NCBI GenBank assembly: GCA_964652185.1 | Contig: CAZZDD010000001.1 | Coordinates: 20,407-84,406 of the forward strand | DNA: 64,000 bases | Direction: 5' to 3' | Origin: an uncultured Candidatus Peribacteria bacterium | Lineage (GTDB): Bacteria > Patescibacteriota > Gracilibacteria > Peribacterales > Peribacteraceae | In this document: positions 29,568 through 55,183 of the stretch, piece after piece | How the letters are laid out: each line of letters starts with the position of its first letter | Numbering within the stretch: position 1 is the first letter of the stretch | Notes under the pieces: model-generated | Told to the model about the DNA's origin: nothing | The model's input: only the letters and a program-made list of their open reading frames with translations | The model's database searches: none | Program-made: the position numbers and the translations under genes

Positions 29568-32498
29568 CTAGAGAGTAATGTTGTACGAAACCGCACTGGC
29601 TTCCGTATCCCGGTAGACCATACCGACACGCATGGTGCCAACAATCACAGTGCTATCACTGATAGCATCGCGTTGCACTTCAAACATCCAGCGCCGCTTG
29701 TAGCCAAGACGCCATTGATCGAAACGCACACCAAGAATAGAGCCCGTGGTGTTATTGCTGGCGGTATCAAGATCGACCTTGCCGGCAGTGTTCGCCTTCA
29801 GACCATATGTGGCATCTTGATTTGCACGGTGCATGTTTGCCGAGGCGAACACGCGTGCGCCGTAGATGCTGGTCAGCATACCCTCTTCAATGGTCGGTCG
29901 AATGAACACGTCACGAGTTTTAATCTCGGCAAGTTCAAGCGACTTCCAGTGAGTGTGCATATCGGTAATGAATGCAACTTTGGATTTATCAGCAGCATTG
30001 CGCCCACCCAAGCCCATGAGCTTAAGAGTTTCCAGATAATCCTCAAGCGTCAACGTGCCGGCGCTACGAGCATTGGCTGTATTCGTCACCAACGCCAACT
30101 TGCGAAACCCATCAAACAGCATGAACGCTTCAGTGCCGGCAGGTGTGCCGCCGATGTCGTTGATGTTCGTGGTGGCACCCGCTGCGGTGTCGCCGTCAAG
30201 GATGACGTGCTCCATCACTTCGGCAGCTTCCGCCACAATGTCACGGCGCAACTCGGACACCCACGGGATGAACGAATCTTCCTCAAGTTCGCCACTGTAG
30301 TTGATGGCTGCACCAAGCTTAGACACCGACAGGGTTTGCTTGGCAGTGTTCAGGCGGCTTGTGGTTTGCGTCGGGGTGACGCGGCCAGGATTGCTATCCT
30401 GCGCACTCGCCTGAGCAACCTTGTAGAAGGTTGGGCTTGTGCCAATGACGGGGATGATAATCGATTCGCTGCCTTGGGGAATTTCCACGGTTGGAATCTG
30501 CGCAGCAATAGGAGCGGCCAAACGAACCTTATCCCACAGCTGGGTGCTGTAGGTAACGCCAACCCACTCGTCACCATAGCTGGCAAGCGTGGACTGGTTT
30601 AACTCGTTCGCCTTCATCGACATGCCTGCGCCCTTCATTGCAGCCTTAGATGCAATGTATTCGCGCTCTTCGTCGCCTGTGGTTTCGGCAATGCGCACAG
30701 CCATCGCTTTGATCAGATCTTCGCTTGGCCCGGTGCTCATGCGACCACCGACACTAACGCCCTTTGCGCTGTTCAATACACCGGCGGCAAAAGCAAGGTC
30801 GTCAATACCAAGCGTGTCATACTTCCACAGGTTGCCGAACTTGGCTTGGTACGGCGCTTCTCCACCACCCGGCAAGCGTCGCGCTTCGGCAGCTTCGGCT
30901 TTTGCGGCTTCGATTGCAGCCTTGGCGGCGGTACGCTCTTCCTCGAATTGCTTTTCGAGTTCGACACGCACGGCTTCAGCGGAACTCTTGGCAGCGTTTT
31001 TTACTTCATTCTGTCGATCCTGTTCAGCCTTGACAGCGGCATCGCGTTGCGCGAAAACTTCCGCCACAGACTGAGCAACAAGATCCTTGACGTTCACTTC
31101 GTCCATTGTCTTATTCTCCATTACTTCAGATCGTTGTTGGTTGTCCGTCTCGCTTGCTTTTGCCGATGCCCGCCCTCGCAATGGTGTACTGCCATCACCT
31201 ATAGCTGCATCCTCTGGCGCTTGCTCAGAGTCCGGTTCTATGTCATCAGGCAGAGTAAGCCCCGCCTGTGTCCATACTGCTTTCATCACCGGCAATGCCA
31301 CGGCGTATTGATTCGCCGGTTGCCGGTTGCCTACTGCATCAAAGATACTCAGTTCCGCGACGGGCCAATGCGTGATGTGCCCGTCTTTGCCCTTGCGAAC
31401 TAGGTGCGTAATTGAGCCACTTGACGCACGTGCCACACCCTGCTTGGCAGCTTCCCACACGCGCTTGGCGTAGGCGCTTGCCTTATCCAGTACCACACGA
31501 TACCAATGTCCTTTGTTATCAACGTGGCTATAACTTGCTGTGCCAATGTATGCCGGCTCACTGGACGGACGGTTATTTTCGTCGTAGCCGTGGAAGTAAA
31601 TTGCCGGCACAGCCTTGAATTGTTCGGTGTACGTTTTCGTCTGCTCGCTGAAATACTCACCGTCAGAATCACGTCCGGCATTGTGCCCACCGAATGGGAC
31701 GCCCAGCACATCAAGTGCCCACACATCGCCATCTGATTTGATAGCACGCACAAGCCCGTAAATCACCGGCTGCGCTTCGGCTGTGGATTTCTCTGCGCTC
31801 TTGACGTTGATCTCGATCTCAACCTTGCCGTTATCCTCTTCGCAATCTTCTTCCTCACCCATGCCCATCAGCGGGAAGTCAAGCCGTTCACCGGCCCAAA
31901 TCAAGCTGACTTTTTCAACTCGCATCGGCGTTGCCGGAATCATCAGATCGGGCATCGGCATTGCCGCCGGTAGGTAAGCCACAGTGATATGTGGCGTAAA
32001 CCCGTGGTCGGATTCTTCGATATATTCGTCAACTTCTTCGCATAACTCCGCACGAAGGTCCGCCAACTGTGGGCTGTCGTAGTTCAGGAACAGCGGGTAT
32101 TGCCCTTCGCTTTCACTGAATCGTCCGTAGCCGTTGATCGTGCCTTGCAGTGGGCTGTAGCACTTGGCGCACTCGGTAATGGCGGCAACGATGTCGTTCT
32201 TGCTACCTGCAATAGTCGCCACGTCATCAGCCAAGTAAAGCAACGTCACGTGGTCACATTCGCCGGTTGCCATTTCGCCGACAAGACCACGCACGGTGCC
32301 AATCTGTTCGGGCGTCAGCATGAGCGCAATCATTGCGCCTTGGTTCGCCATCGGATCGATCTGCACTGCCTTAGTTTGAATCGTGGTCGTCATTGCTTCC
32401 GGCTCCATATCATTCACCGTGGCCACAATGCTCGTTGCAGCACTACGGATGTCGTTCAGTCGTTGCCGGTCATTTCGATTATTGCGTGCACCTGGCAT
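29568..32498 (-). CDS. polyprotein: 2H phosphoesterase - prohead protease - scaffold (delta-like coiled coil) - HK97-fold major capsid protein (976 aa)
   Basis: Single uninterrupted ORF. HxT motifs at H83 and H170. Protease-like GVPFGGHNAGRDSDGEYFS...AIYFHGYD...SSGSITH. AEK-rich coiled coil. C-terminal HK97-type MCP (LNQSTLASYGDEWVG...KQTLSVSKLGAAINYSGELEEDS...ILDGDT...FEVQRD). Confidence 0.85.
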   Translation of the reverse strand: MPGARNNRNDRQRLNDIRSAATSIVATVNDMEPEAMTTTIQTKAVQIDPMANQGAMIALMLTPEQIGTVRGLVGEMATGECDHVTLLYLADDVATIAGSKNDIVAAITECAKCYSPLQGTINGYGRFSESEGQYPLFLNYDSPQLADLRAELCEEVDEYIEESDHGFTPHITVAYLPAAMPMPDLMIPATPMRVEKVSLIWAGERLDFPLMGMGEEEDCEEDNGKVEIEINVKSAEKSTAEAQPVIYGLVRAIKSDGDVWALDVLGVPFGGHNAGRDSDGEYFSEQTKTYTEQFKAVPAIYFHGYDENNRPSSEPAYIGTASYSHVDNKGHWYRVVLDKASAYAKRVWEAAKQGVARASSGSITHLVRKGKDGHITHWPVAELSIFDAVGNRQPANQYAVALPVMKAVWTQAGLTLPDDIEPDSEQAPEDAAIGDGSTPLRGRASAKASETDNQQRSEVMENKTMDEVNVKDLVAQSVAEVFAQRDAAVKAEQDRQNEVKNAAKSSAEAVRVELEKQFEEERTAAKAAIEAAKAEAAEARRLPGGGEAPYQAKFGNLWKYDTLGIDDLAFAAGVLNSAKGVSVGGRMSTGPSEDLIKAMAVRIAETTGDEEREYIASKAAMKGAGMSMKANELNQSTLASYGDEWVGVTYSTQLWDKVRLAAPIAAQIPTVEIPQGSESIIIPVIGTSPTFYKVAQASAQDSNPGRVTPTQTTSRLNTAKQTLSVSKLGAAINYSGELEEDSFIPWVSELRRDIVAEAAEVMEHVILDGDTAAGATTNINDIGGTPAGTEAFMLFDGFRKLALVTNTANARSAGTLTLEDYLETLKLMGLGGRNAADKSKVAFITDMHTHWKSLELAEIKTRDVFIRPTIEEGMLTSIYGARVFASANMHRANQDATYGLKANTAGKVDLDTASNNTTGSILGVRFDQWRLGYKRRWMFEVQRDAISDSTVIVGTMRVGMVYRDTEASAVSYNITL
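31860..32340 (-). other. 2H phosphoesterase (LigT/CPDase-like) domain within the capsid polyprotein
   Basis: GAMIALML...ECDHVTLLYL (motif 1) and FTPHITVAYL (motif 2), 87 aa apart, each H-x-T followed by hydrophobics. C-terminal VSLIWAGERLDFPL strand. Confidence 0.7.
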
Positions 32499-32759: not shown

Positions 32760-32788
32760 ATTATATCACTAGCTTACCGAATCGTCAA
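32760..32788 (-). promoter_or_regulatory. sigma70-type promoter TTGACG-17 nt-TATAAT with TG extension
   Basis: Minus strand: TTGACG (32788..32783), 17-nt spacer ending TGA, TATAAT (32765..32760). Lies in the 413-nt non-coding gap upstream of the capsid gene. Confidence 0.65.
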
Positions 32789-32911: not shown

Positions 32912-33235
32912 TCACACTGTCTCCAAGAAATAACTTGTTTCCACATGCATCACCGGTCGCTTTGGGTAATTATTCTGCTCATCCATGCGGCAAACGATAA
33001 TGGCACCTGGAATCATATCGTCCTTGGGCAAAAATCTTAATCCTAAAATCCTAATGTAGGTTTCTTCTTCGTTATATTCACATGGTGTGTACGGCAAATA
33101 TCTCGATGACTGCGATTCGTACTTTATGCTCAGTGTTATCATCTTTGCCATCGAGTAGTTACAGACAATGCAGTCAGGATCGCGTCTGTTCCCCCGTGTA
33201 TACGATTCGATTAGTAGTGCAATAAAATCAATCAC
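32912..33235 (-). CDS. hypothetical Cys-containing protein (107 aa), AT-rich island
   Basis: GTG start in GTGA overlap with the upstream small ORF. No motif. Confidence 0.5.
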   Translation of the reverse strand: MIDFIALLIESYTRGNRRDPDCIVCNYSMAKMITLSIKYESQSSRYLPYTPCEYNEEETYIRILGLRFLPKDDMIPGAIIVCRMDEQNNYPKRPVMHVETSYFLETV

Positions 33236-33393
33236 GCCGTCAACCTCGCCAAATGGTACGATGCCAATGACAACCCGATCATGGCAAGAATCACAGTCTG
33301 TGCCTGATCTCTTGGCGCGGCACCACTCGCTAGGATGATCAGAAATGCGGCAATGTTAATGATGATGGCTAGCCATTTAAATAGTCGGTTCAT
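33232..33393 (-). CDS. small two-helix membrane protein (53 aa), AT-rich island
   Basis: Below track cutoff. ATG 33393 in ATGA overlap with upstream stop. WLAIIINIAAFLIILASGA and VILAMIGLSLASYHLA hydrophobic segments. Confidence 0.5.
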   Translation of the reverse strand: MNRLFKWLAIIINIAAFLIILASGAAPRDQAQTVILAMIGLSLASYHLARLTA

Positions 33394-33689
33394 GGCTTTG
33401 TCTCCGAATTATTCAGGCGTCGAATTGGGGCGTCAATGATCACTGTCTCGGCAATCAAGTTGGCAATCTTTTCATCGATCCATTTTGGGCTGTTCCATCT
33501 CGCCGGCTTTGTTCTGTACGTCACAGTATCAGGCGGCATGACATATCCACGCTGTTCACCATGAGAGCGGTCGGATTCTCGCAGAAATCCTCTTGGTGGC
33601 GTTGATTCTGTGGATTCACCTTTGATCAACCGTTCTGCGAATTCGTCGGCAATTTTTTTTGCTGCTGTTTCCATAGAATAAGCAACCAT
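33390..33689 (-). CDS. hypothetical protein (99 aa); probably the body of a longer gene interrupted by an in-frame TAA
   Basis: ATG 33689 has no SD. An SD-preceded ATG at 33764 is in the same frame, separated by TAA at 33719..33717. Confidence 0.5.
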   Translation of the reverse strand: MVAYSMETAAKKIADEFAERLIKGESTESTPPRGFLRESDRSHGEQRGYVMPPDTVTYRTKPARWNSPKWIDEKIANLIAETVIIDAPIRRLNNSETKP

Positions 33690-33760
33690 GCGCTGGAGCG
33701 TTTCGTTGTCAACTTCTTACAACCGTTGGCACAATTCTTCACTGATTGGAATACTGATCT

Positions 33761-34126
33761 TCATCTTACTCGCTTCTCCTTCGTCCGTGGCAACTCGATA
33801 AACAATAGGTCGCCATTTGTAAATTTTATCTTGTATACAATTGTATCAGCGTCAGGATTGGCGTGGATACTACTTTGCGTGCTTTTTATCACAGCACCAC
33901 TTTCAAGCTTTTCCAGAAACTCACGCAAATTATCTATATTGATTGTTCGTTTCTGTGGACCTTGGATCGATTGCTCTCCCCTCAGTGCCCTTCTTGCATC
34001 ATAGCCACGTCTAGTCATTTCGCCTTCAATCTCGATCAGCGTCATTCGATCAATGGGAATGCGCCATGCGACTTTGTAAGAAGCCATTAAATCGTCAAGG
34101 CTCTGTTCGGACAATGGAATTTTCAT
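33761..34126 (-). CDS. hypothetical protein (121 aa), AT-rich island
   Basis: ATGA coupling. Starts MKIPLSEQSL and ends LPRTKEKRVR. Confidence 0.5.
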   Translation of the reverse strand: MKIPLSEQSLDDLMASYKVAWRIPIDRMTLIEIEGEMTRRGYDARRALRGEQSIQGPQKRTINIDNLREFLEKLESGAVIKSTQSSIHANPDADTIVYKIKFTNGDLLFIELPRTKEKRVR

Positions 34127-34320
34127 CGCACCCGCTTCTCTTTCGTTGTTGGCAATCCGAACGCATTTTCAAGTGCAGTCAATCCACGGATGCGTTCTTC
34201 GCGCTCACGAATAGTGATATAGTTTTCCAGGCGCAGAACGCGCATAATGAGATCGTTGTATTGCTGCGATGATAGTTGGATTATAGCATTGTCCGGCAAT
34301 GGTTTCAAACTATCGCTCAT
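34123..34320 (-). CDS. hypothetical helical protein (65 aa), AT-rich island
   Basis: ATGA coupling. Ends LPTTKEKRVR, the same tail as the next gene. Confidence 0.5.
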   Translation of the reverse strand: MSDSLKPLPDNAIIQLSSQQYNDLIMRVLRLENYITIREREERIRGLTALENAFGLPTTKEKRVR

Positions 34321-34613
34321 TGTTCGATCTTCTTTGCCTCCACAAGCCAGGTGTCGTCGGGTTCTTGTGTAATCGTCAGGGCATATTCAGGCGGAACACT
34401 GCCATAGTCGCAAGGCTCAAATAGCGCTGAGAAAGCCTCATACTCAATATGATTCAATACAAACATGTGCTCAGCACGTACAATAATGAAATTGCCAAAG
34501 AGACTACATAATTGTGTGCCAGTTGAATACCCAAGGGCGTCTCGGCTTATATTGAATCGCCCAACACGATGCTGCCTGATTAGTTCGTTGTATACCGGCT
34601 GTTCCTCGCTCAA
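34317..34613 (-). CDS. hypothetical protein (98 aa), AT-rich island
   Basis: Starts directly after the upstream stop. No motif. Confidence 0.5.
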   Translation of the reverse strand: MSEEQPVYNELIRQHRVGRFNISRDALGYSTGTQLCSLFGNFIIVRAEHMFVLNHIEYEAFSALFEPCDYGSVPPEYALTITQEPDDTWLVEAKKIEQ

Positions 34614-35015
34614 CTAAATCGCTCCCTCAATCGCTTGCGCAAAATCACTTTCAATTGCATCCATGTTGCTTAAAATAGCTTCCTCATCATTTGTCCAACG
34701 TCCCACGTGGGTCGCGCTCTGTTGCTCTTTGCTGCCAACATACGGTCCATAGCTGCGTCCACGCTTATCCCGAACAGCGTTGCCGAGCACGCCCGTAATA
34801 CCGTCGCCGTTCTCATTGATTTCCGAGGTCCATTCACGGCCGTAGTTGCCTGTGCGTTGATAGGTGCTGCCTGATGGTGGTGCCGGATAGATCGCCATCG
34901 CACTTTGCAACCGTCCCATACTGCGCGTCATCGGCGGGCGCAAAACCCGATTTTGTTGCAGTGCGTTTAGCTTGGCGAATAGGGCAGTGTCGCCGTCTAG
35001 TGTGATGCTGATCAT
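34614..35015 (-). CDS. virion-module protein (133 aa), gp10/neck-like
   Basis: Follows the MuF gene. The YQRTGNYGREW motif resembles Y-x-R-T-G-x-L-x-x-W of head-tail joining families. Weak call. Confidence 0.5.
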   Translation of the reverse strand: MISITLDGDTALFAKLNALQQNRVLRPPMTRSMGRLQSAMAIYPAPPSGSTYQRTGNYGREWTSEINENGDGITGVLGNAVRDKRGRSYGPYVGSKEQQSATHVGRWTNDEEAILSNMDAIESDFAQAIEGAI

Positions 35016-35021
35016 AGTTTA

Positions 35022-35774
35022 TTAGTCCACATAGGGTTGAATAAAGCAACGACATGAGACGTGTGCCGGCGGGAATAACCCACCCGCAAAATTGCCACGA
35101 ACATCAGTAGTCGTCCCATTTAATGGCTGGCAAATTTGACATACTTTTTCATCAGATGCCGTGTACCAACGCATTTGAGTGATTACCCCGCCAGAAATCA
35201 GACTGATTCGCATTCCTTCAGCGAATGAGCGGGTGGTTTCAGTCACGCTCACGATCTCAGCACGCCGCCTACTAAACAATGTCCGTTCGAGATCAGCAAT
35301 CAAATCATTGTACGTTCGGTCGTTTTGCACCCACTCAGCAAGCAAGGTCCGTAGTTGTCGCTCACTAGTGGTTGCCATCGATTGAAGAACAGTGTTGGCA
35401 TAACCATCGCCAAACCCTGTTCCGAACTCTGTGCCATTACCTAGGATCCACGCCAGAACATCGCTATTAATCAGATCCCAATCAACACCATTAATGAATG
35501 CAGCTTTGCCGACACCCATCGCCCATTCGGTTTGTTGTCGCCCGATGTCAGCACCTAGCAGTGCACCATCGGTAAGCATAGCCACAAGCGCATCACGCAA
35601 GATTGACTGATTGTCCCGATAGCGCTGTACAGCAATGTCTGGCGTGATGTTGTCGGGTGTTGTACCCGCCGGTGCCACTTTGCGCATGATTTGCCGTAGC
35701 GCCTTGTGGATTAGCTCAGTATGCTTGTTCTCTAGCTCGCTGCGTTCACTGTCTGCGCCATCCGCACCCGGCAT
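35022..35774 (-). CDS. head morphogenesis protein, SPP1 gp7 / Mu F family
   Basis: C-terminal signature SDEKVCQICQPLNG....FPPAHVSCRCF. Start uncertain: ATG 35774 just after the portal stop, or upstream ATGs to 35855. Confidence 0.8.
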   Translation of the reverse strand: MPGADGADSERSELENKHTELIHKALRQIMRKVAPAGTTPDNITPDIAVQRYRDNQSILRDALVAMLTDGALLGADIGRQQTEWAMGVGKAAFINGVDWDLINSDVLAWILGNGTEFGTGFGDGYANTVLQSMATTSERQLRTLLAEWVQNDRTYNDLIADLERTLFSRRRAEIVSVTETTRSFAEGMRISLISGGVITQMRWYTASDEKVCQICQPLNGTTTDVRGNFAGGLFPPAHVSCRCFIQPYVD

Positions 35775-35778
35775 CGGT

Positions 35779-37530
35779 CTACGGGTAGCTTTGCCACTCA
35801 GATTGAAAAAAGGCATCAGTGCCGGCGGCATCCTCCGATTCGCGCACGTCGGCAACGATGGAAGCCTTTTGTGTTGGTGTCATGTGCTCAACAATGAAAT
35901 CATCAGGATCGCCGCCCGGTCGCTTTTTCAACCACTTGCGAAACGCCTTCATCTCTGCCACTTGCTGCTCGGTTTCATCTCCATCGTCGCTAACGTTTTC
36001 GCCAACGTCACCCCGTGTCGCTTCTTCTGTAGCTGTGGGCGCCATCAATTGCCGCGGTTGCGCCACAACCACAGAAGAATCAATGGACGGCAGCAACGAT
36101 GTGTCAAGACCGACGATGGCAAATAGTCGCTCCACCGGCACACCCACGGCCACACCCGCTGCAATTGCCTCAAACTTTGCCTTGAGTTCCGCCGGTGGTT
36201 CTTTATCGAATGGTGGCAAACCTAGTGATGTACGCGCCTCGGCGCGGGTAACAATGCCGCTGTTGACCTGGTATGCAAATACCTGTGTCAATTGCGCAGC
36301 CGGGTCTGTAGGCTCTGCCGCCGTAGGCTCTTGCTTGACCGGCTCATTTAGCAATCGAATACCACGAGCATCGGCCAACGGCTCTAATGCATAGTACTCT
36401 TGGCGCAACTCATCAATCGTCATCACCTGCGCAGCTGCGTTCTGTTCGGCAATCTCCATGCCACGGTCGACGATGCGAATATCATCGAATTCGCCAATCA
36501 GGTTGTCGCCATACGCCGGCAGCAAATCATTCGTGATCTTCTCTGCCATCGCAACTAAGTGCGGCCACACACCTAGCTCAATGAATGTCGCCTTACCCGC
36601 TTTGCTATTTGCTTCGGTTGCATTGACTGCCGTCATGGACGCTAGCCCAGGCGCATAGATACCGTAAATCTCCTCTTTGTTAAAGGTACGTCCGGCTAAA
36701 AACTCCATGTCCTTCTGCGACATCGCCATATTAATCCACGAAACACCGCCCTGCCCAACGTTGCGCAGCATCATCAATTGACGATTCGTGCCCCCATGTT
36801 GCGACGTAATGTCAGCTTTAATTTTCGACCACCGCACATCGTCAATCATGTCGCTAAAAGCCAGTGCGCCAGGTGCCTTGGCGTTGTTCTTGTCAAAGTA
36901 GTTTGTGTTCCATCGCTGCATGGCAAGATCGCCGGTTGCGATAGTGGCTAGCGATTCGATGGGAGACAAGCCAACAAACTGTGACAATGGATGGTAGCGT
37001 TTAAAGTGAACAATCTCATAACGTGGAATAAATAGATCCTCACCCGCATCCGTTTCATAGTTGTAGCCACGAATGAACATCCGTCCATCAGGTACAGGCG
37101 CAAGTTTGTTGGACGGAATCACCCAAATTTCATCGGGTTCCGATTTTTCATCCTTGCGGTTTAACCACCAATACGCATTGCCGGTTAGTGCCCGATAGCT
37201 CAGTGTCGCCTCAATTAGTTCAAAACGAGACATCAGTGGATTCGGACGGCGTAAGCGCAACTCAAATGGATGATTGTCGATGGCGTTGGTTTTTTCACCC
37301 TTGAGCTCTGAAACACCGAACGGCACAGTCGCCGCCATGCTCGCCACAGACGACACGGCAATCTGTACCCATGATAGCCGCTGATACAACTCAAGTTGCG
37401 CTGTGGGCATCGTGTGATCAGGCGTGCGATACATCTGATCTTCTGCTGTCATTCGCAGCCAATCTGCCTGTACCTGATCAGCTTTGCGGTATCCAAGCCA
37501 AGATGCTACGCTATCTAAAATTGTCGCCAT
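35779..37530 (-). CDS. portal protein (HK97-family type)
   Basis: 583-aa ORF directly after TerL. Portal-like blocks (LSYRALTGNAYWWL, FKRYHPLSQFVGLSPIESL, GGTNRQLMMLRN). Long acidic C-terminal extension. Confidence 0.85.
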   Translation of the reverse strand: MATILDSVASWLGYRKADQVQADWLRMTAEDQMYRTPDHTMPTAQLELYQRLSWVQIAVSSVASMAATVPFGVSELKGEKTNAIDNHPFELRLRRPNPLMSRFELIEATLSYRALTGNAYWWLNRKDEKSEPDEIWVIPSNKLAPVPDGRMFIRGYNYETDAGEDLFIPRYEIVHFKRYHPLSQFVGLSPIESLATIATGDLAMQRWNTNYFDKNNAKAPGALAFSDMIDDVRWSKIKADITSQHGGTNRQLMMLRNVGQGGVSWINMAMSQKDMEFLAGRTFNKEEIYGIYAPGLASMTAVNATEANSKAGKATFIELGVWPHLVAMAEKITNDLLPAYGDNLIGEFDDIRIVDRGMEIAEQNAAAQVMTIDELRQEYYALEPLADARGIRLLNEPVKQEPTAAEPTDPAAQLTQVFAYQVNSGIVTRAEARTSLGLPPFDKEPPAELKAKFEAIAAGVAVGVPVERLFAIVGLDTSLLPSIDSSVVVAQPRQLMAPTATEEATRGDVGENVSDDGDETEQQVAEMKAFRKWLKKRPGGDPDDFIVEHMTPTQKASIVADVRESEDAAGTDAFFQSEWQSYP

Positions 37531-43404: not shown

Positions 43405-45411
43405 TTATATCGCCAAAAATCGATTAATACGCACGGTGCCGCTAACGACTCGCACAACAACGGTATGCTCATCGTAATCCATATTCCATACACTCAGGTA
43501 CGCGGTCCCTTGTTCGCTTAGGTCAACTTGTTGCTCTTCGCTGCCATCCACGGTCCAGGCATAAACGCCCGCGCCCACGCTGTTGTTGCTGTCAAACCCA
43601 AACGAGCAGAACGTACCCGTCCAACTGATTGTGCTGTTGACCGTGGACGATGTGCGTGCGGTAGTGCTCACCGTTGACCATGTGCCCGTCTCACCATCGT
43701 TGTCAACACCCGTACGGATTTGGCTTTCTCTCTCATAATCTGCCGATTCAGCGTAATAGCGGGACGGTAAGACGCTTGGTTTGTTCGGTGCAATTGTCGC
43801 AAGCCGTGGGTACATAGCACCTGCAATTAGAGCGTGCCCCGCATCGGATGGGTGAACGTTGCCAGGAGATGCTATATATGGCTCTATATCACTGTCATCG
43901 TAAGGCTCCCCCACCACTGCAACAATCGCGTCATCGAATCGAGCGGGCGTCAGACCGTAGAGCGAACAAAGAGCAAGCCATTTATCACGTACATCCTTCA
44001 TTGTTTGCGTGACATAGCTGTAATCCTCTGGTCTGGTAAAAATACCAACGACCAACATGGCGGAGGGGAGTTCTGTCCACAATCTCCGTATCAATGCTTC
44101 GGCAGTTGGCGCAAAGCCGTCGCTGCGATCTCCAATTTCGTCGTAGCCATCGTTGACCGCAAAGTCAACGAACACAACAGCGGGCGAATAGTCCAACACA
44201 TCGGTTTGAAGGCGCACCAGTCCGTACCATGATGGCGTGCCACCTTCTGCCGATTCAATCGATGTAATGGTGTAGTTCAGCTTGTTTTCGTTGAGCCACT
44301 TACGTGTTAGAGCCCGCCAGCTTGTTCCCTCATTTTCCGTACTGCTTGCGCCGCCGGTGATACTGCCGCCCAACCAAACCACATCAATGTCTGGACCAGG
44401 CTTGGTCATGAAAAACCCCTGCGCTTCACAACCGCCACCGGTACACCATAGTCCGTGATAGCCATTGTCAACGATCTCTGCGTCACTGATCGTTTGGTCG
44501 CTACCAACCTGAACATCGCCATACCAAAGCTGGAAAGTGGTTGACGCTGTACGCCTTACCTCAACGTGCGCCCCGGCGAAGTATGTGGCACTGCTGCTAA
44601 TGAGTTCTGTTATTGTGCCACTGACAACTTTGGACATTTTCACAGTCTCGGTAATGCGGTCGAAGCGTGCCCGCACGTAAGATGTGGGATCGCTGGTGCT
44701 ATTGGCACAGACTACAACACCAGCGTGCTGTCCATCAGGTATATTCCAGCCTGCCCGTACAATAACCGGTCCCGTCACAACTTGGTCACGGAAGGTCATC
44801 AGCGACGCGGGAACCATAATCTTTGCTGATACGTTGTCAAAGTAGAGACTAGCGTTTGGCGCAATGCCACGCGATAAAAAAAGCTGCTGGTTAGTGACAG
44901 ATGGCGCAAGTGTCACTAGTGCGTCCGTCCAACTTGTACCGGGGGTAATCGTCCCACCCACCGTTGTTGACGCACCGCTCTGAATACGTATGATCGCTGT
45001 GTCGTCTGACGCACGTACACGCACCGCAACACGCTCGAAATCACCAACGGCTACAGCCACCGTTTGCCGTATGCTGCAACCACTGCTTGAACCGTCAATG
45101 TCAAAACGGGCACTGTAAGTGCCGGAATCAACAATCGTACTCTCTTGGTTGACCGTGGACGATCCGGCGATAGTTTCTGTCCAACTCGTCAGATTGGTTG
45201 CGCTAGACCAATTCTCAAACGCACCATCAGTAAGCAACTCACTGCCAACCGATGGCGTGTTAGTCGCTGCGCCGTTGACGATTTGCCATGTACTAGCATT
45301 GAGCCAGCCATTACCGAGGCTACCATCATCGCGATCAAAAAGATCGATAAATCGCGGTGTGCCACTTACTCCCAACCTGCTACCCAGCAATCCACTACCC
45401 AATAATGTCAT
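43405..45411 (-). CDS. carbohydrate-binding + SGNH/GDSL-type esterase protein (668 aa), probable virion-associated depolymerase/deacetylase
   Basis: CBM4/9-like opening (LLTDGAFENWSS...LTSWTE). SGNH blocks: VVWLGGSITGG (I), SAEGGTPS (II), VFVDFAVNDG (III), VHPSDAGHALIA (V). Confidence 0.7.
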   Translation of the reverse strand: MTLLGSGLLGSRLGVSGTPRFIDLFDRDDGSLGNGWLNASTWQIVNGAATNTPSVGSELLTDGAFENWSSATNLTSWTETIAGSSTVNQESTIVDSGTYSARFDIDGSSSGCSIRQTVAVAVGDFERVAVRVRASDDTAIIRIQSGASTTVGGTITPGTSWTDALVTLAPSVTNQQLFLSRGIAPNASLYFDNVSAKIMVPASLMTFRDQVVTGPVIVRAGWNIPDGQHAGVVVCANSTSDPTSYVRARFDRITETVKMSKVVSGTITELISSSATYFAGAHVEVRRTASTTFQLWYGDVQVGSDQTISDAEIVDNGYHGLWCTGGGCEAQGFFMTKPGPDIDVVWLGGSITGGASSTENEGTSWRALTRKWLNENKLNYTITSIESAEGGTPSWYGLVRLQTDVLDYSPAVVFVDFAVNDGYDEIGDRSDGFAPTAEALIRRLWTELPSAMLVVGIFTRPEDYSYVTQTMKDVRDKWLALCSLYGLTPARFDDAIVAVVGEPYDDSDIEPYIASPGNVHPSDAGHALIAGAMYPRLATIAPNKPSVLPSRYYAESADYERESQIRTGVDNDGETGTWSTVSTTARTSSTVNSTISWTGTFCSFGFDSNNSVGAGVYAWTVDGSEEQQVDLSEQGTAYLSVWNMDYDEHTVVVRVVSGTVRINRFLAI

Positions 45412-49055: not shown

Positions 49056-49823
49056 CTATCTCAATACTAACTTTTCCGCTTGCTTGTAGTCTAGTGCCAA
49101 CTTTGCCTCGTCCACCGCCTGCTGTACCGGCAGCCCCGCGGCGAACAACTTATAAAACTCTTGTGCAAATTCGATAGCTGCATCGTCTTCGATTTCGCCG
49201 CTCACCGCCACCACGTGCTGAACGCCTGCACGCTTCATTGCATCTGCTACACTCTCGTCACTGAAACACGCTAGTATGACAGCTACGCGGATGCCTCGAT
49301 TCTTTAATGCTCTTTGCCACCACCCCGCCGTCAGCTCATGCTGATCGATAAATATGGCATCAGCATCACCATGTGCACCGATCTCTATTACAGTGATATT
49401 GCCCTGACGCAACTCTCGCAAAATATTAGCTTTCGTAGCTGCATCACCGATTAGCGTTCTATACTCGAATCCGGCATCATAGATGGCGTCTCGCTCTGCC
49501 ATCGTGTCAAGATTATCGCCACTCCAAATGCCAAGTATCGTTACCTCCGACACATGATTCACCTGTTTGCGCAGCGTGTTGATCTCTTGCTCTAATCTCG
49601 CTCTATCCTGTCGCAGTTCCTCTATTTCCCGCTTTGCTTGATTCACTTCAATCAGCAACGTATTCCGCTCATCTCGCAGCCATGCAACTTGCTTTTTCAA
49701 TTCCTGGATTTCCATTGCTGTACTGGCTGTGTTTGGAATCCAACCACGCCGTATACTAATTACAAAAACGACAAATAGCAGCAATGAAAACATCAACGAC
49801 AATACAAAAAACCACCCACTCAT
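49056..49823 (-). CDS. membrane-anchored coiled-coil protein with C-terminal CHAT (caspase-like) domain (255 aa)
   Basis: N-terminal TM (FFVLSLMFSLLLFVVFVISI RR). Heptad coiled coil (aa ~37-90). CHAT-like core VIEIGAHGDAD (H151) ... IRVAVILACFSDE (C186) ... AGVQHVVAVSGEIEDDAAIEFAQEFYKLFAAG. Confidence 0.65.
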   Translation of the reverse strand: MSGWFFVLSLMFSLLLFVVFVISIRRGWIPNTASTAMEIQELKKQVAWLRDERNTLLIEVNQAKREIEELRQDRARLEQEINTLRKQVNHVSEVTILGIWSGDNLDTMAERDAIYDAGFEYRTLIGDAATKANILRELRQGNITVIEIGAHGDADAIFIDQHELTAGWWQRALKNRGIRVAVILACFSDESVADAMKRAGVQHVVAVSGEIEDDAAIEFAQEFYKLFAAGLPVQQAVDEAKLALDYKQAEKLVLR

Positions 49824-53965: not shown

Positions 53966-54168
53966 TACAGTTCCACCCAATCACACGCTGCCTTAGTCAC
54001 GCCATCAACCACAATCAGATCATCATTGCTCAGTAGTTCGGGATCGTCTTCCTCGTCCCATCCCCACGTTGGATTAAAATCTTGATTGGCATATCGAAAC
54101 CGCACGTAGACAACACTGCCATGTTCTTCGCCACCAAATCTAACCGTGTAGAATCCGTCGCTTGGCAT
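53965..54168 (-). CDS. hypothetical protein (67 aa)
   Basis: ATG 54168 overlaps the endolysin stop (TGATG). Confidence 0.45.
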   Translation of the reverse strand: MPSDGFYTVRFGGEEHGSVVYVRFRYANQDFNPTWGWDEEDDPELLSNDDLIVVDGVTKAACDWVEL

Positions 54169-54992
54169 CACGCCCCCACCAATTGCCGAATCAACTGAGC
54201 ATAATGACTAGCATTTGCGCTGCCATTGTAGGTCTTCGCAAAGCCTAGATAATCGCCAATCTTCAATGCTGCCAATGCCCCACTGCTATCCATCCACCGG
54301 AACATAGCTTCAATCTGCACGTCTTCGCCCTCACTGAACGCCAACGCCATTGCCGGCGCTGACACGTAGCCAAGCATTTTATGATGGAATCCCATTAGTT
54401 GAGGCGCACCCATACTGCAACTCTGCCAAGCAGATTCGGCATCGATCATTGTGGCTAGACTAAGCGCTTGCCACTCACCATTTTGCTTGCCGTGATAGCC
54501 TACCCAATCGGCTCGCGGTGAAGTACGCAGTCTGTGTTGGTTGCCGTCCCACACTGGTGAGCCAACAGCGAACAATCTGTCGAAGCCGTCGCTTGTGGCA
54601 CGAACTCGAAACACGTGTGGCTCAAAGCGAATCACAAGCCGTCCATCCTCAAAGCCACGCCCGCCCGATTCAACCTGAATCACAGCCTTGACTTTCGCCA
54701 CATCTACGCCGTAAGCCGCCGACAGTCGATCAATCAATGGCGGTGTCTCACCAAGGACAATCAGTAATGGACGCCCGCTTACGGCCTCAGCGCACCAGCC
54801 AACTTTGTCGCCACTCTGCACACCCCACCATCGCAAGCCGTCCGCGTCAACAGGACCATCAACCACACGCAGCGGATCGCCGGTGTAGGACAGTTCGCCA
54901 ATCTTGCCGTAGCTGCGACCTGGACCACTGCGAATATTTACGATTAATGGCGTGCTGACATTTACGCCGATGGTGATTGGTTCTAGTCCCAT
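54168..54992 (-). CDS. endolysin: SH3b domain + N-acetylmuramidase (DUF3380/PF11860-type)
   Basis: VNIRSGPGRSYGKIGEL...GLRWWGVQSGDKVGWCAE (SH3b). AVIQVESGGRGF...IRFEPHVF...SCSMGAPQLMGFHHKMLGY...FAKTYNG (muramidase). ATG 54992. Confidence 0.85.
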   Translation of the reverse strand: MGLEPITIGVNVSTPLIVNIRSGPGRSYGKIGELSYTGDPLRVVDGPVDADGLRWWGVQSGDKVGWCAEAVSGRPLLIVLGETPPLIDRLSAAYGVDVAKVKAVIQVESGGRGFEDGRLVIRFEPHVFRVRATSDGFDRLFAVGSPVWDGNQHRLRTSPRADWVGYHGKQNGEWQALSLATMIDAESAWQSCSMGAPQLMGFHHKMLGYVSAPAMALAFSEGEDVQIEAMFRWMDSSGALAALKIGDYLGFAKTYNGSANASHYAQLIRQLVGA

Positions 54993-55183
54993 ATGATCGC
55001 CCCGCCACGTTGCAACGAAAGAAAGCGATCCCAGTCCCAAGAATAAACCGCATCTTGTGGATTTAGTCCCGGCACAAGCGGACATATCTGCCCGATCATC
55101 CACTCAGATAGCGCAGCCTGAAGAGACTCGTCTGTCTCGCTGATTCGGATATAGTTGATGCCATCGTGATTGTGAATTTGCAT
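54983..55183 (-). CDS. hypothetical protein (66 aa), first ORF after the structured leader
   Basis: ORF with a weak SD. No TM segment, so not an obvious holin. Confidence 0.4.
   Translation of the reverse strand: MQIHNHDGINYIRISETDESLQAALSEWMIGQICPLVPGLNPQDAVYSWDWDRFLSLQRGGAIIWD

Follow-up and report, generated by a model that had tools for sequence, protein, structure and literature searches.

Phosphoesterase domains of the 2H superfamily are known as fusions to the MuF or the portal protein within head-packaged polyvalent proteins (Iyer et al. 2017, PMC5512222). These head-fused versions never associate with RNA ligases, and roles as an RNase or in the degradation of signal nucleotides have been proposed for them; assemblin-like peptidases sit at the C-termini of polyvalent proteins (PMC5512222). 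Iyer et al. 2022 (PMC9503650) consider it probable that 2H domains attached to MuF or portal counter immune signalling by oligonucleotides after being packaged and injected, and they report Nudix domains on MuF, on portal proteins and on the capsid-processing serine peptidase. Fusions of protease, scaffold and capsid protein in a single gene have been described for Microbacterium phages of clusters EE/EL and for Arthrobacter phages of clusters AM/AU (PMC7302621, PMC5513430). Here, we describe a gene that attaches a 2H domain to the N-terminus of such a capsid polyprotein. It is a single unbroken open reading frame (ORF) of 976 amino acids (aa) at 29568..32498 on the minus strand of the window, by which we mean a 64-kb stretch of a ~95-kb contig (CAZZDD010000001.1, from an uncultured Candidatus Peribacteria bacterium).

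Effector enzymes on internal head proteins are thus already known, and the preliminary description of this DNA, made from the letters alone, had suggested that the 2H enzyme might be packaged or co-injected. This idea is plausible, but it has already been published for MuF and portal fusions (PMC5512222; PMC9503650). The anchor on the capsid polyprotein, with its subunit-level stoichiometry, is widespread but undescribed: the literature searched yielded no description of a 2H domain on a capsid polyprotein. Searches for literature on the phage BCSR5 phosphodiesterase structure, on LigT in connection with anti-defence and on packaged phosphodiesterases directed against CBASS, the antiphage signalling system based on cyclic oligonucleotides, also found none.

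The polyprotein and its modules

From N- to C-terminus, the polyprotein consists of an Arg-rich leader, a 2H phosphoesterase module, an acidic linker, a protease, a scaffold segment and a capsid domain (Table 1). The preliminary description had read the same uninterrupted ORF in the same order, and both are upheld by the ORF list and by the domain evidence given below. The range that it had singled out, 31860..32498, corresponds to aa 1-213, that is, to leader and 2H module. The two H-x-T motifs are found where it had placed them: DHVTL starts at aa 82 (H83) and PHITV at aa 169 (H170), with a spacing of 87 aa, followed by VSLIWAGERLDFPL and an acidic stretch. In the 2H superfamily, the two H-x-T/S motifs go back to an internal duplication and are spaced by about 80-90 residues, which agrees with this distance. 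A protein identical to the window polyprotein (P0001) is encoded on a 94,993-bp contig.

The 2H module was assigned by profile and by predicted fold. PF13563 matches aa 83-200 with 56 bits (gathering score 27, E 6e-15), while PF02834 matches the protein only marginally, and a search of PDB sequences with aa 1-234 returned chance-level matches only. An AlphaFold2 model of aa 36-225, based on a 16-sequence alignment, has a predicted local distance difference test score (pLDDT) of 84 and a predicted template modelling score (pTM) of 0.79. When this model was compared with the PDB by Foldseek, a 2',3'-cyclic phosphodiesterase from Deinococcus (5h7e) was the best match (E 3e-8, TM 0.68/0.71). The next matches were Thermus TT0787 (1iuh) and E. 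coli LigT (5ldm). All three structures are matched over full length, with TM from 0.55 to 0.71. Lower ranks are taken by Usb1, rotavirus VP3, coronavirus ns2 and the cGAMP phosphodiesterases of poxviruses. There are 36 fold matches at E <= 1e-3, and nearly all of them are 2H-fold proteins, which have a two-lobed alpha+beta fold. By profile and model, the assignment to the 2H superfamily is far beyond chance, and the module is predicted to be an enzyme domain similar to LigT and cyclic phosphodiesterase (CPDase).

The preliminary description had named a LigT/CPDase/Acb1-type fold. LigT and CPDase are borne out by PF13563 and by the match to 5h7e, but Acb1 has to be dropped from this list. The Acb1 family (PF23474) has no match to the window protein at E <= 1 in the Pfam scan, and a few relatives show sub-threshold, marginal matches only. 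With no profile match, and with LigT and CPDase as the nearest structures, we reject membership in the Acb1 family.

Both H-x-T motifs and the HGFTPH-x-T block around the second one are invariant in 21 family members, in the 16-sequence profile and in 64 distant multidomain relatives. Identity of the 2H module drops to ~28% in the most distant family members, and the catalytic motifs are unchanged even there. Invariant catalytic motifs amid drifting sequence are the typical pattern of a maintained active site, and for this reason the module probably has one.

For the protease, similarity resides in the predicted fold. Neither Pfam nor PHROGs nor PDB sequences gave a match to the region of aa 240-470, and the window protein does not match the Peptidase_S78 profile (PF04586). 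An hhalign comparison of the protease profile with the single HK97 gp4 sequence was insignificant, though S360 aligns in it with the Ser of the HK97 gp4 "GMS" motif. A model of aa 247-446 (pLDDT 81.5) has 81 Foldseek matches in BFVD at E <= 1e-3, the best at 1.4e-10, and nearly all of the named ones are prohead or head-maturation proteases. The top matches in the PDB are herpesvirus assemblins and T4 gp21; these are weak (E 0.04-0.3). H303, the ASSGS motif (S359/S360/S362) and the QPAN motif are invariant in the family, and one distant member of the core family (P0159) passes PF04586 with 23.6 bits (threshold 21). On this fold evidence, we accept aa 247-424 as an HK97-type prohead protease. 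The preliminary description had called a prohead-protease-like module from motifs only, and the predicted fold agrees with that call.

The segment between protease and capsid domain has no match in Pfam, PHROGs or PDB sequences. Its composition (21% A, 15% E and 10% K over aa 456-560) fits the Ala/Glu/Lys coiled coil that had been proposed for it, and its position between the two modules suggests a scaffold role. The C-terminal domain had been described as an HK97-fold capsid domain. Its own matches are weak: 17.5 bits to PF05065 (E 0.003, under the gathering score of 24.2), 1e-4 to 1e-5 to the PHROG head families phrog_1623, phrog_10 and phrog_267, and a weak match to the major capsid protein 5tjt in the PDB. 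The assignment gains from the PF05065 matches on record for many family members and from the position of the gene.

The gene order in the window is portal, MuF, small ORFs, polyprotein, a 132-aa ORF and adaptor. The polyprotein is the only capsid-like gene between portal/MuF and head-tail adaptor, both in the window and in the contigs of two relatives, and no separate protease or scaffold gene was found in any of the three. Relatives with and without the 2H module have the same head-gene order. There is no in-frame internal start with a Shine-Dalgarno-like sequence near the boundary between 2H and protease, so that no route is visible by which a capsid protein devoid of the 2H domain could be made from this gene.

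The N-terminal slot and the fusion partners of the 2H subfamily

A database search for the family of the polyprotein gave 283 relatives, and the domain layout was read from the 120 listed. Most of these are ~705-720 aa long and begin at about aa 248-250 of the query; they represent the bare protease-scaffold-capsid core. The 2H module is present in ~22 of the 120. These proteins have 47-72% identity to the query and stem from NCBI, ENA, JGI and Logan assemblies. Named genomes with the core family belong mainly to the Chloroflexota, namely metagenome-assembled genomes of Anaerolineae and Herpetosiphon geysericola DSM 7119. In the latter, a cultured strain, the core family is encoded in a probable prophage (L016, NZ_LGKP01000010.1, 83755-91854).

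The preliminary description had noted a leader of about 50 aa. The leader exists, but it is better described as a conserved Arg-rich motif (aa 3-33), which is also kept in relatives that have a Cys-rich module instead of 2H or that have no insert. Some relatives have the leader alone, and others have the leader plus a Cys-rich mini-domain ("CGMCKAY...MVCDDY") in place of 2H. The leader could be an assembly or targeting signal, or it could be akin to the arginine-rich nucleic-acid-binding peptides, which its sequence resembles. Further modules found at this position are a 117-aa domain without Pfam match ("MADSF...GRGGLSNAEAS"), a DUF5754-like domain and a "GGFAGP" domain, a possible equivalent of DUF6582. 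Slot modules in P0005, P0006, P0020-P0023, P0099 and P0104 occupy the N-terminal 60-250 aa. When the alternative N-terminal modules of the relatives were searched for by tblastn, no remnant was detected in the window, the 413-bp upstream gap included. In a neighbour-joining tree of the core, which was computed without bootstrap and is indicative only, 2H-bearing proteins fall into at least three clades that are interleaved with proteins lacking 2H, and the Cys variants are nested in a 2H clade. As judged from these sequences, the N-terminus behaves as an optional, exchangeable accessory slot, and 2H as an optional cargo.

The 2H module was also followed beyond this family. A word-indexed homologue search with the module alone found only three proteins, which reflects a limit of the index, and was replaced by an exhaustive search with the module profile against 1.84 billion representative proteins. 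The subfamily comprises 6,923 representative clusters at E <= 1e-3, of which 593 reach E <= 1e-30. Partners were read from the best 147 hits, of which 107 are longer than 500 aa and 19 have the size of a stand-alone protein, and 64 multidomain ones were scanned with Pfam and PHROG. Among these 64, the partners are portal (9 to 11), Phage_capsid (10), prohead proteases (7, from the three families S78, S78_2 and Mu-like), MuF (1) and a few singletons; in many, no partner domain could be recognised, and domains of tail or terminase proteins were absent from all of them. In the proteins examined, 2H is mostly embedded in long chains, and its recognisable structural partners are restricted to internal head proteins. 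Portal- and MuF-fused versions are retrieved by the module profile at E ~1e-40.

An N-terminal 2H domain is combined with a C-terminal capsid domain in P0130, P0132, P0140, P0141, P0157, P0177, P0179, P0207 and P0246, and P0136 has an internal 2H domain upstream of the capsid domain. The capsid-fused proteins span two capsid families of Pfam. The protease module of the window is present in 22 of the 147 best hits, and the 2H-protease-capsid layout is found in at least 14 representative clusters (P0003, P0095, P0159 and P0231 counted in). It is therefore not a one-off architecture.

The order of the domains follows the attachment. In all 12 Pfam-confirmed cases, 2H is N-terminal to the capsid domain, and in 9 of 10 portal fusions it is C-terminal to the portal domain, one of these being a portal-2H-MuF protein. 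The portal C-terminus and the N-terminal side of HK97-type capsid proteins both face the capsid interior, and the 2H domain would thus be placed consistently inside the head.

Proposed role and rival explanations

All segments that precede the shell domain are expected to face the procapsid interior, so that each capsid subunit should bring one 2H domain inside. This topological argument had been made in the preliminary description, and it gains from three observations: the polyprotein gene is the sole capsid gene, it has no internal start with a ribosome-binding site, and the portal fusions carry 2H on the interior side. We propose that the polyprotein would assemble with its N-terminal ~620 residues inside the procapsid and that its protease would then cut the linker regions in cis. 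The compact 2H domain of ~20 kDa would be too big for the capsid pores and would stay in the head, as the internal proteins of phage T4 do, to be ejected with the DNA at infection. At the onset of infection, it would attack molecules of the host defence with a phosphodiesterase activity that needs no metal. Its candidate substrates are immune signals, made of cyclic or 2'-5'-linked (oligo)nucleotides or of the cyclic ADP-ribose type, or else RNA and 2',3'-cyclic phosphate ends. The domain may also be active in the cytoplasm before assembly, and the two roles would be compatible. We regard this sequence of assembly, cleavage in cis, trapping, ejection and early degradation of defence nucleotides or RNA as evenly balanced between being right and being wrong.

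Several points weigh against retention and ejection of an anti-defence enzyme. During HK97 maturation, delta domain and protease are digested and lost, and by analogy the 2H domain could be degraded too. Space inside the head is a further issue. We made our own rough estimate for a genome of ~95 kb and a head of 500-700 subunits, with 1.2 cubic angstroms assumed per dalton. The polyprotein mass inside, ~68 kDa per subunit, would then take up roughly 30-45% of the procapsid volume, and a fully retained fragment of leader and 2H domain (~27 kDa) ~10% of the mature head volume, which is a real cost. Retention is feasible but costly, and because full retention is costly, partial loss is possible. 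The 2H/protease linkers of distant fusions share no cleavage motif; what is common to them is a variable acidic linker. Finally, the structures closest to the predicted model are CPDase and LigT enzymes of the housekeeping type and not proven anti-defence enzymes.

It is tempting to extend the proposal to other phages. The N-terminus of capsid polyproteins might be a general, exchangeable cargo slot, the phage counterpart of the cargo-fused encapsulins. In this lineage, it would load one active 2H domain per subunit, so that each virion would inject several hundred enzymes, which would erase immune nucleotides or host RNA before phage expression. This would define a class of internal virion enzymes that are encoded with the capsid protein and present in high copy number, unlike the MuF and portal fusions with their low one. 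We consider this generalization doubtful at present.

The 2H domain might also act late and never leave the cell. As an antidote on the assembling polyprotein, it would destroy messengers whose synthesis is triggered by the sensing of capsid, protease or scaffold; it would be lost at maturation and would not be delivered to the next host. Mutations by which phages escape Type I CBASS are found in the prohead protease-scaffold protein and in the capsid protein, and expression of the scaffold domain alone leads to CBASS toxicity (bioRxiv 10.1101/2023.05.21.541620). A fusion would ensure that the antidote is made in equal amount and at the same time as the most abundant late protein, and its loss would fit HK97, where N-terminal domains are normally digested. 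Co-expression alone, however, predicts fusions to tail proteins, terminase and outward-facing capsid termini as well, whereas the recognisable structural partners in the 64 relatives are all internal head components, in an interior-facing arrangement. A portal fusion, with its 12 copies per virion, is also ill-suited to a stoichiometric antidote. We think of such an antidote as possible, though on the unlikely side. A role in RNA repair has some appeal, since the nearest structures, CPDase and LigT, act on 2',3'-cyclic phosphates and since 2H enzymes of phages are known, or have been proposed, to work together with RNA ligases in repair (PMC7824862; PMC9503650). The domain would then initiate end-healing by opening the 2',3'-cyclic phosphate ends that host anticodon nucleases or toxin RNases leave on tRNAs or mRNAs. 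We judge this to be improbable: a scan of 32 large ORFs of the window, which covers 64 kb of the ~95-kb contig, revealed neither an RNA ligase nor a polynucleotide kinase nor an RtcB domain, head-fused 2H domains are reported never to occur with RNA ligases (PMC5512222), and it is not obvious why a repair enzyme should be fused to a capsid protein.

The slot accepts unrelated small domains or nothing, and most relatives assemble a capsid without 2H. One might conclude that the module is just extra scaffold mass which tunes procapsid size or assembly and that its enzyme ancestry is irrelevant. With the H-x-T motifs and the HGFTPH block invariant in the 21 family members and the 64 distant relatives, a non-enzymatic filler is very hard to credit. 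Even less credit can be given to an artefact, be it two misjoined genes or translation that starts downstream of 2H, for which it might be argued that most family members begin at about query aa 250. A merger of two genes by an assembly error, which the preliminary description had considered, is effectively excluded because ~22 relatives at 47-72% identity, from independent samples and assemblies, carry the same in-frame fusion; more distant lineages (P0130, P0132, P0140, P0207 and others) add to these. A downstream start is countered by the lack of a Shine-Dalgarno-like internal start and by the conserved promoter and terminator element that precede the annotated ATG.

If the 2H domain is indeed retained and ejected, hundreds of copies of a counter-defence enzyme would be delivered together with the DNA. 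In this way, the phages would pre-empt immunity by second messengers (CBASS, Pycsar, Thoeris, type III CRISPR) or defences that target RNA. To our knowledge, no 2H enzyme has yet been shown experimentally to act as ejected virion cargo. Cultured Arthrobacter and Gordonia phages provide experimental handles, and the Herpetosiphon strain could be another. The fusion is also a ready template for equipping HK97-type capsids with enzymes in a defined stoichiometry. Thousands of database proteins of the 2H subfamily are annotated inconsistently, and "head-associated 2H phosphoesterase fusions" would be a better term.

Neighbouring genes and comparison with described systems

Table 1. Modules of the capsid polyprotein gene and elements upstream of it (positions in the window)
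Feature	Position	Strand	Basis
Capsid polyprotein gene (leader, 2H, linker, protease, scaffold, capsid domain)	29568..32498	-	ORF list, family relatives, synteny
Arg-rich leader, aa 1-40; core motif aa 3-33 (32400-32492), GARNNRNDRQRLNDIRSAA...MEP	32379..32498	-	kept across family members
2H phosphoesterase domain, predicted LigT/CPDase-like, aa ~52-212	31863..32345	-	PF13563, AlphaFold2 model, Foldseek
Catalytic H-x-T motif 1, H83-V-T85	32244..32252	-	invariant in relatives
Catalytic H-x-T motif 2, H170-I-T172, inside invariant HGFTPH-x-T	31983..31991	-	invariant in relatives
Acidic linker, aa 213-246, a candidate region for maturation cleavage; VEIEI-VK motif semi-conserved	31761..31862	-	sequence and family alignments
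HK97/S78-type prohead serine protease module, aa 247-424; H303, ASSGS 358-362, QPAN 393-396	31227..31760	-	predicted fold, invariant residues
Linker and Ala/Glu/Lys-rich helical scaffold segment, delta-domain-like, aa 425-624 (approximate boundaries)	30627..31226	-	composition, position
HK97-fold major capsid domain, aa ~625-976 (approximate N-terminal boundary)	29568..30626	-	weak Pfam/PHROG/PDB matches, family, gene position
Hairpin and U7, intrinsic-terminator-like, ending ~20 nt before the start codon	32519..32566	-	free energy -34.2 kcal/mol, z -5.6
Sigma-70-like promoter, extended -10, TTGACG-17-TATAAT, 11/12	32760..32788	-	consensus match only

The putative promoter lies ~230 nt upstream of the hairpin. 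An equivalent of the hairpin precedes the orthologous gene in one relative (L004, 7934-7975; 69%-identical polyprotein), with compensatory changes in the stem and a T8 run. Promoter and hairpin could form a late antitermination cassette similar to lambda PR'/tR', or the hairpin could stabilise the capsid mRNA at its 5' end. No Rfam family credibly matches the upstream leader and hairpin.

Seven small ORFs of 53-133 aa are encoded between MuF and polyprotein (32912-35015, minus strand), where the GC content is lower (0.476 over 32-34 kb). Five of them were scanned against PHROGs: four have no match, and the 133-aa ORF (34614-35015) weakly matches "tail completion or Neck1 protein". Small genes in a row are found at the same position in relatives too, in one case with an HNH gene. 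The MuF-like ORF of the window (35022-35855, 277 aa) and the end of the portal ORF have 77 nt in common. The MuF of a 2H-bearing relative (L004, 3419-4939) has 506 aa and a weak DUF3626 match, which could be a fused effector.

Further genes in the window, all on the minus strand, include a 255-aa ORF (49056-49823) with a CHAT (caspase-like protease) domain (E 3e-10). Such a domain is unusual in a phage, and the ORF might be related to defence or counter-defence. A 668-aa ORF (43405-45411) contains a GDSL lipase/acylhydrolase domain at aa 347-528, and an endolysin-like ORF (54168-55103) combines SH3 and N-acetylmuramidase domains. The scan of the 32 large ORFs also revealed Lar restriction-alleviation and dNMP kinase domains. 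No tRNA genes were found. A megablast search with 20 kb of the window against GenBank phages gave no match, and at this level of sequence comparison GenBank appears to hold no close phage.

When the polyprotein was compared with GenBank phages by tblastn, only the 2H part matched, namely in structural-module genes of Gordonia, Arthrobacter and Microbacterium phages. Gp18 of Gordonia phage Lennon has 852 aa with an internal 2H domain. Gp18 of the Laroye-like Arthrobacter phage Edmundo consists of 2H and Peptidase_S78_2 and directly follows MuF. As in the window polyprotein, the 2H domain of the Laroye-like gp18 proteins is directly N-terminal to a prohead protease, and the gene is located between MuF and the capsid gene; unlike the polyprotein, they have an XkdF-type protease (PF14550) and a separate capsid gene. 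No paper that discusses the 2H fusion of Arthrobacter or Gordonia gp18 was found. The annotations of gp18 clash ("RNA ligase", "aldolase class I", "capsid maturation protease", "head maturation protease", "hypothetical protein"; records MF140434 Wheelbite, MN585972 Edmundo and NC_042045/MF919514 Lennon), and RefSeq and GenBank copies of one phage differ.

The Microbacterium EE/EL and Arthrobacter AM/AU fusions have the same layout as the ~710-aa core of the window family, but no N-terminal enzyme cargo has been reported for them. Sequence similarity between them and the window family was not detected in the phage collection.

In cargo-fused encapsulins, such as those of the Pyrococcus furiosus type, an enzyme at the N-terminus of the HK97-fold shell subunit is carried inside the shell, one per subunit. 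The window polyprotein resembles them in having an enzyme N-terminal to an HK97-fold shell subunit. It differs in that the locus is that of a tailed phage with a maturation protease in cis. An encapsulin is ruled out by the terminase, portal, MuF, adaptor and tail genes.

Phage T4 packages the internal proteins IPI-III and Alt in hundreds of copies into the prohead, where they are trimmed by the protease; they are ejected with the DNA and have roles in counter-defence and host takeover. Packaging, trimming and ejection are as proposed here for the 2H domain. The T4 proteins, however, owe their non-covalent targeting to a short capsid-targeting sequence; they are made separately from the capsid protein, without a fusion to it, and their folds are unrelated. 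The introduction of PMC5512222 treats internal injected proteins of the T4 type. Acb1, the anti-CBASS protein of T4 (PMC9117128; PF23474), shares with the window module the 2H superfamily, two H-x-T/S motifs and its phage origin, and it may be a functional analogue. Unlike this module, it is a small, stand-alone cytoplasmic protein.

The closest relationship is to the head-fused 2H domains. As in the effector fusions of Iyer et al. 2017, an enzyme domain is attached to a head-internal protein in a late-gene head module. Polyvalent proteins carry several effector domains (2 to 15), whereas the window polyprotein has a single recognisable one. With the MuF and portal fusions it shares the 2H subfamily, the late-gene head context, the interior-facing attachment and the proposed function. 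It differs from them in its anchor, which is the major capsid polyprotein, reached via protease and scaffold, and in its copy number, which would be that of the capsid subunits and not 12 or a few.

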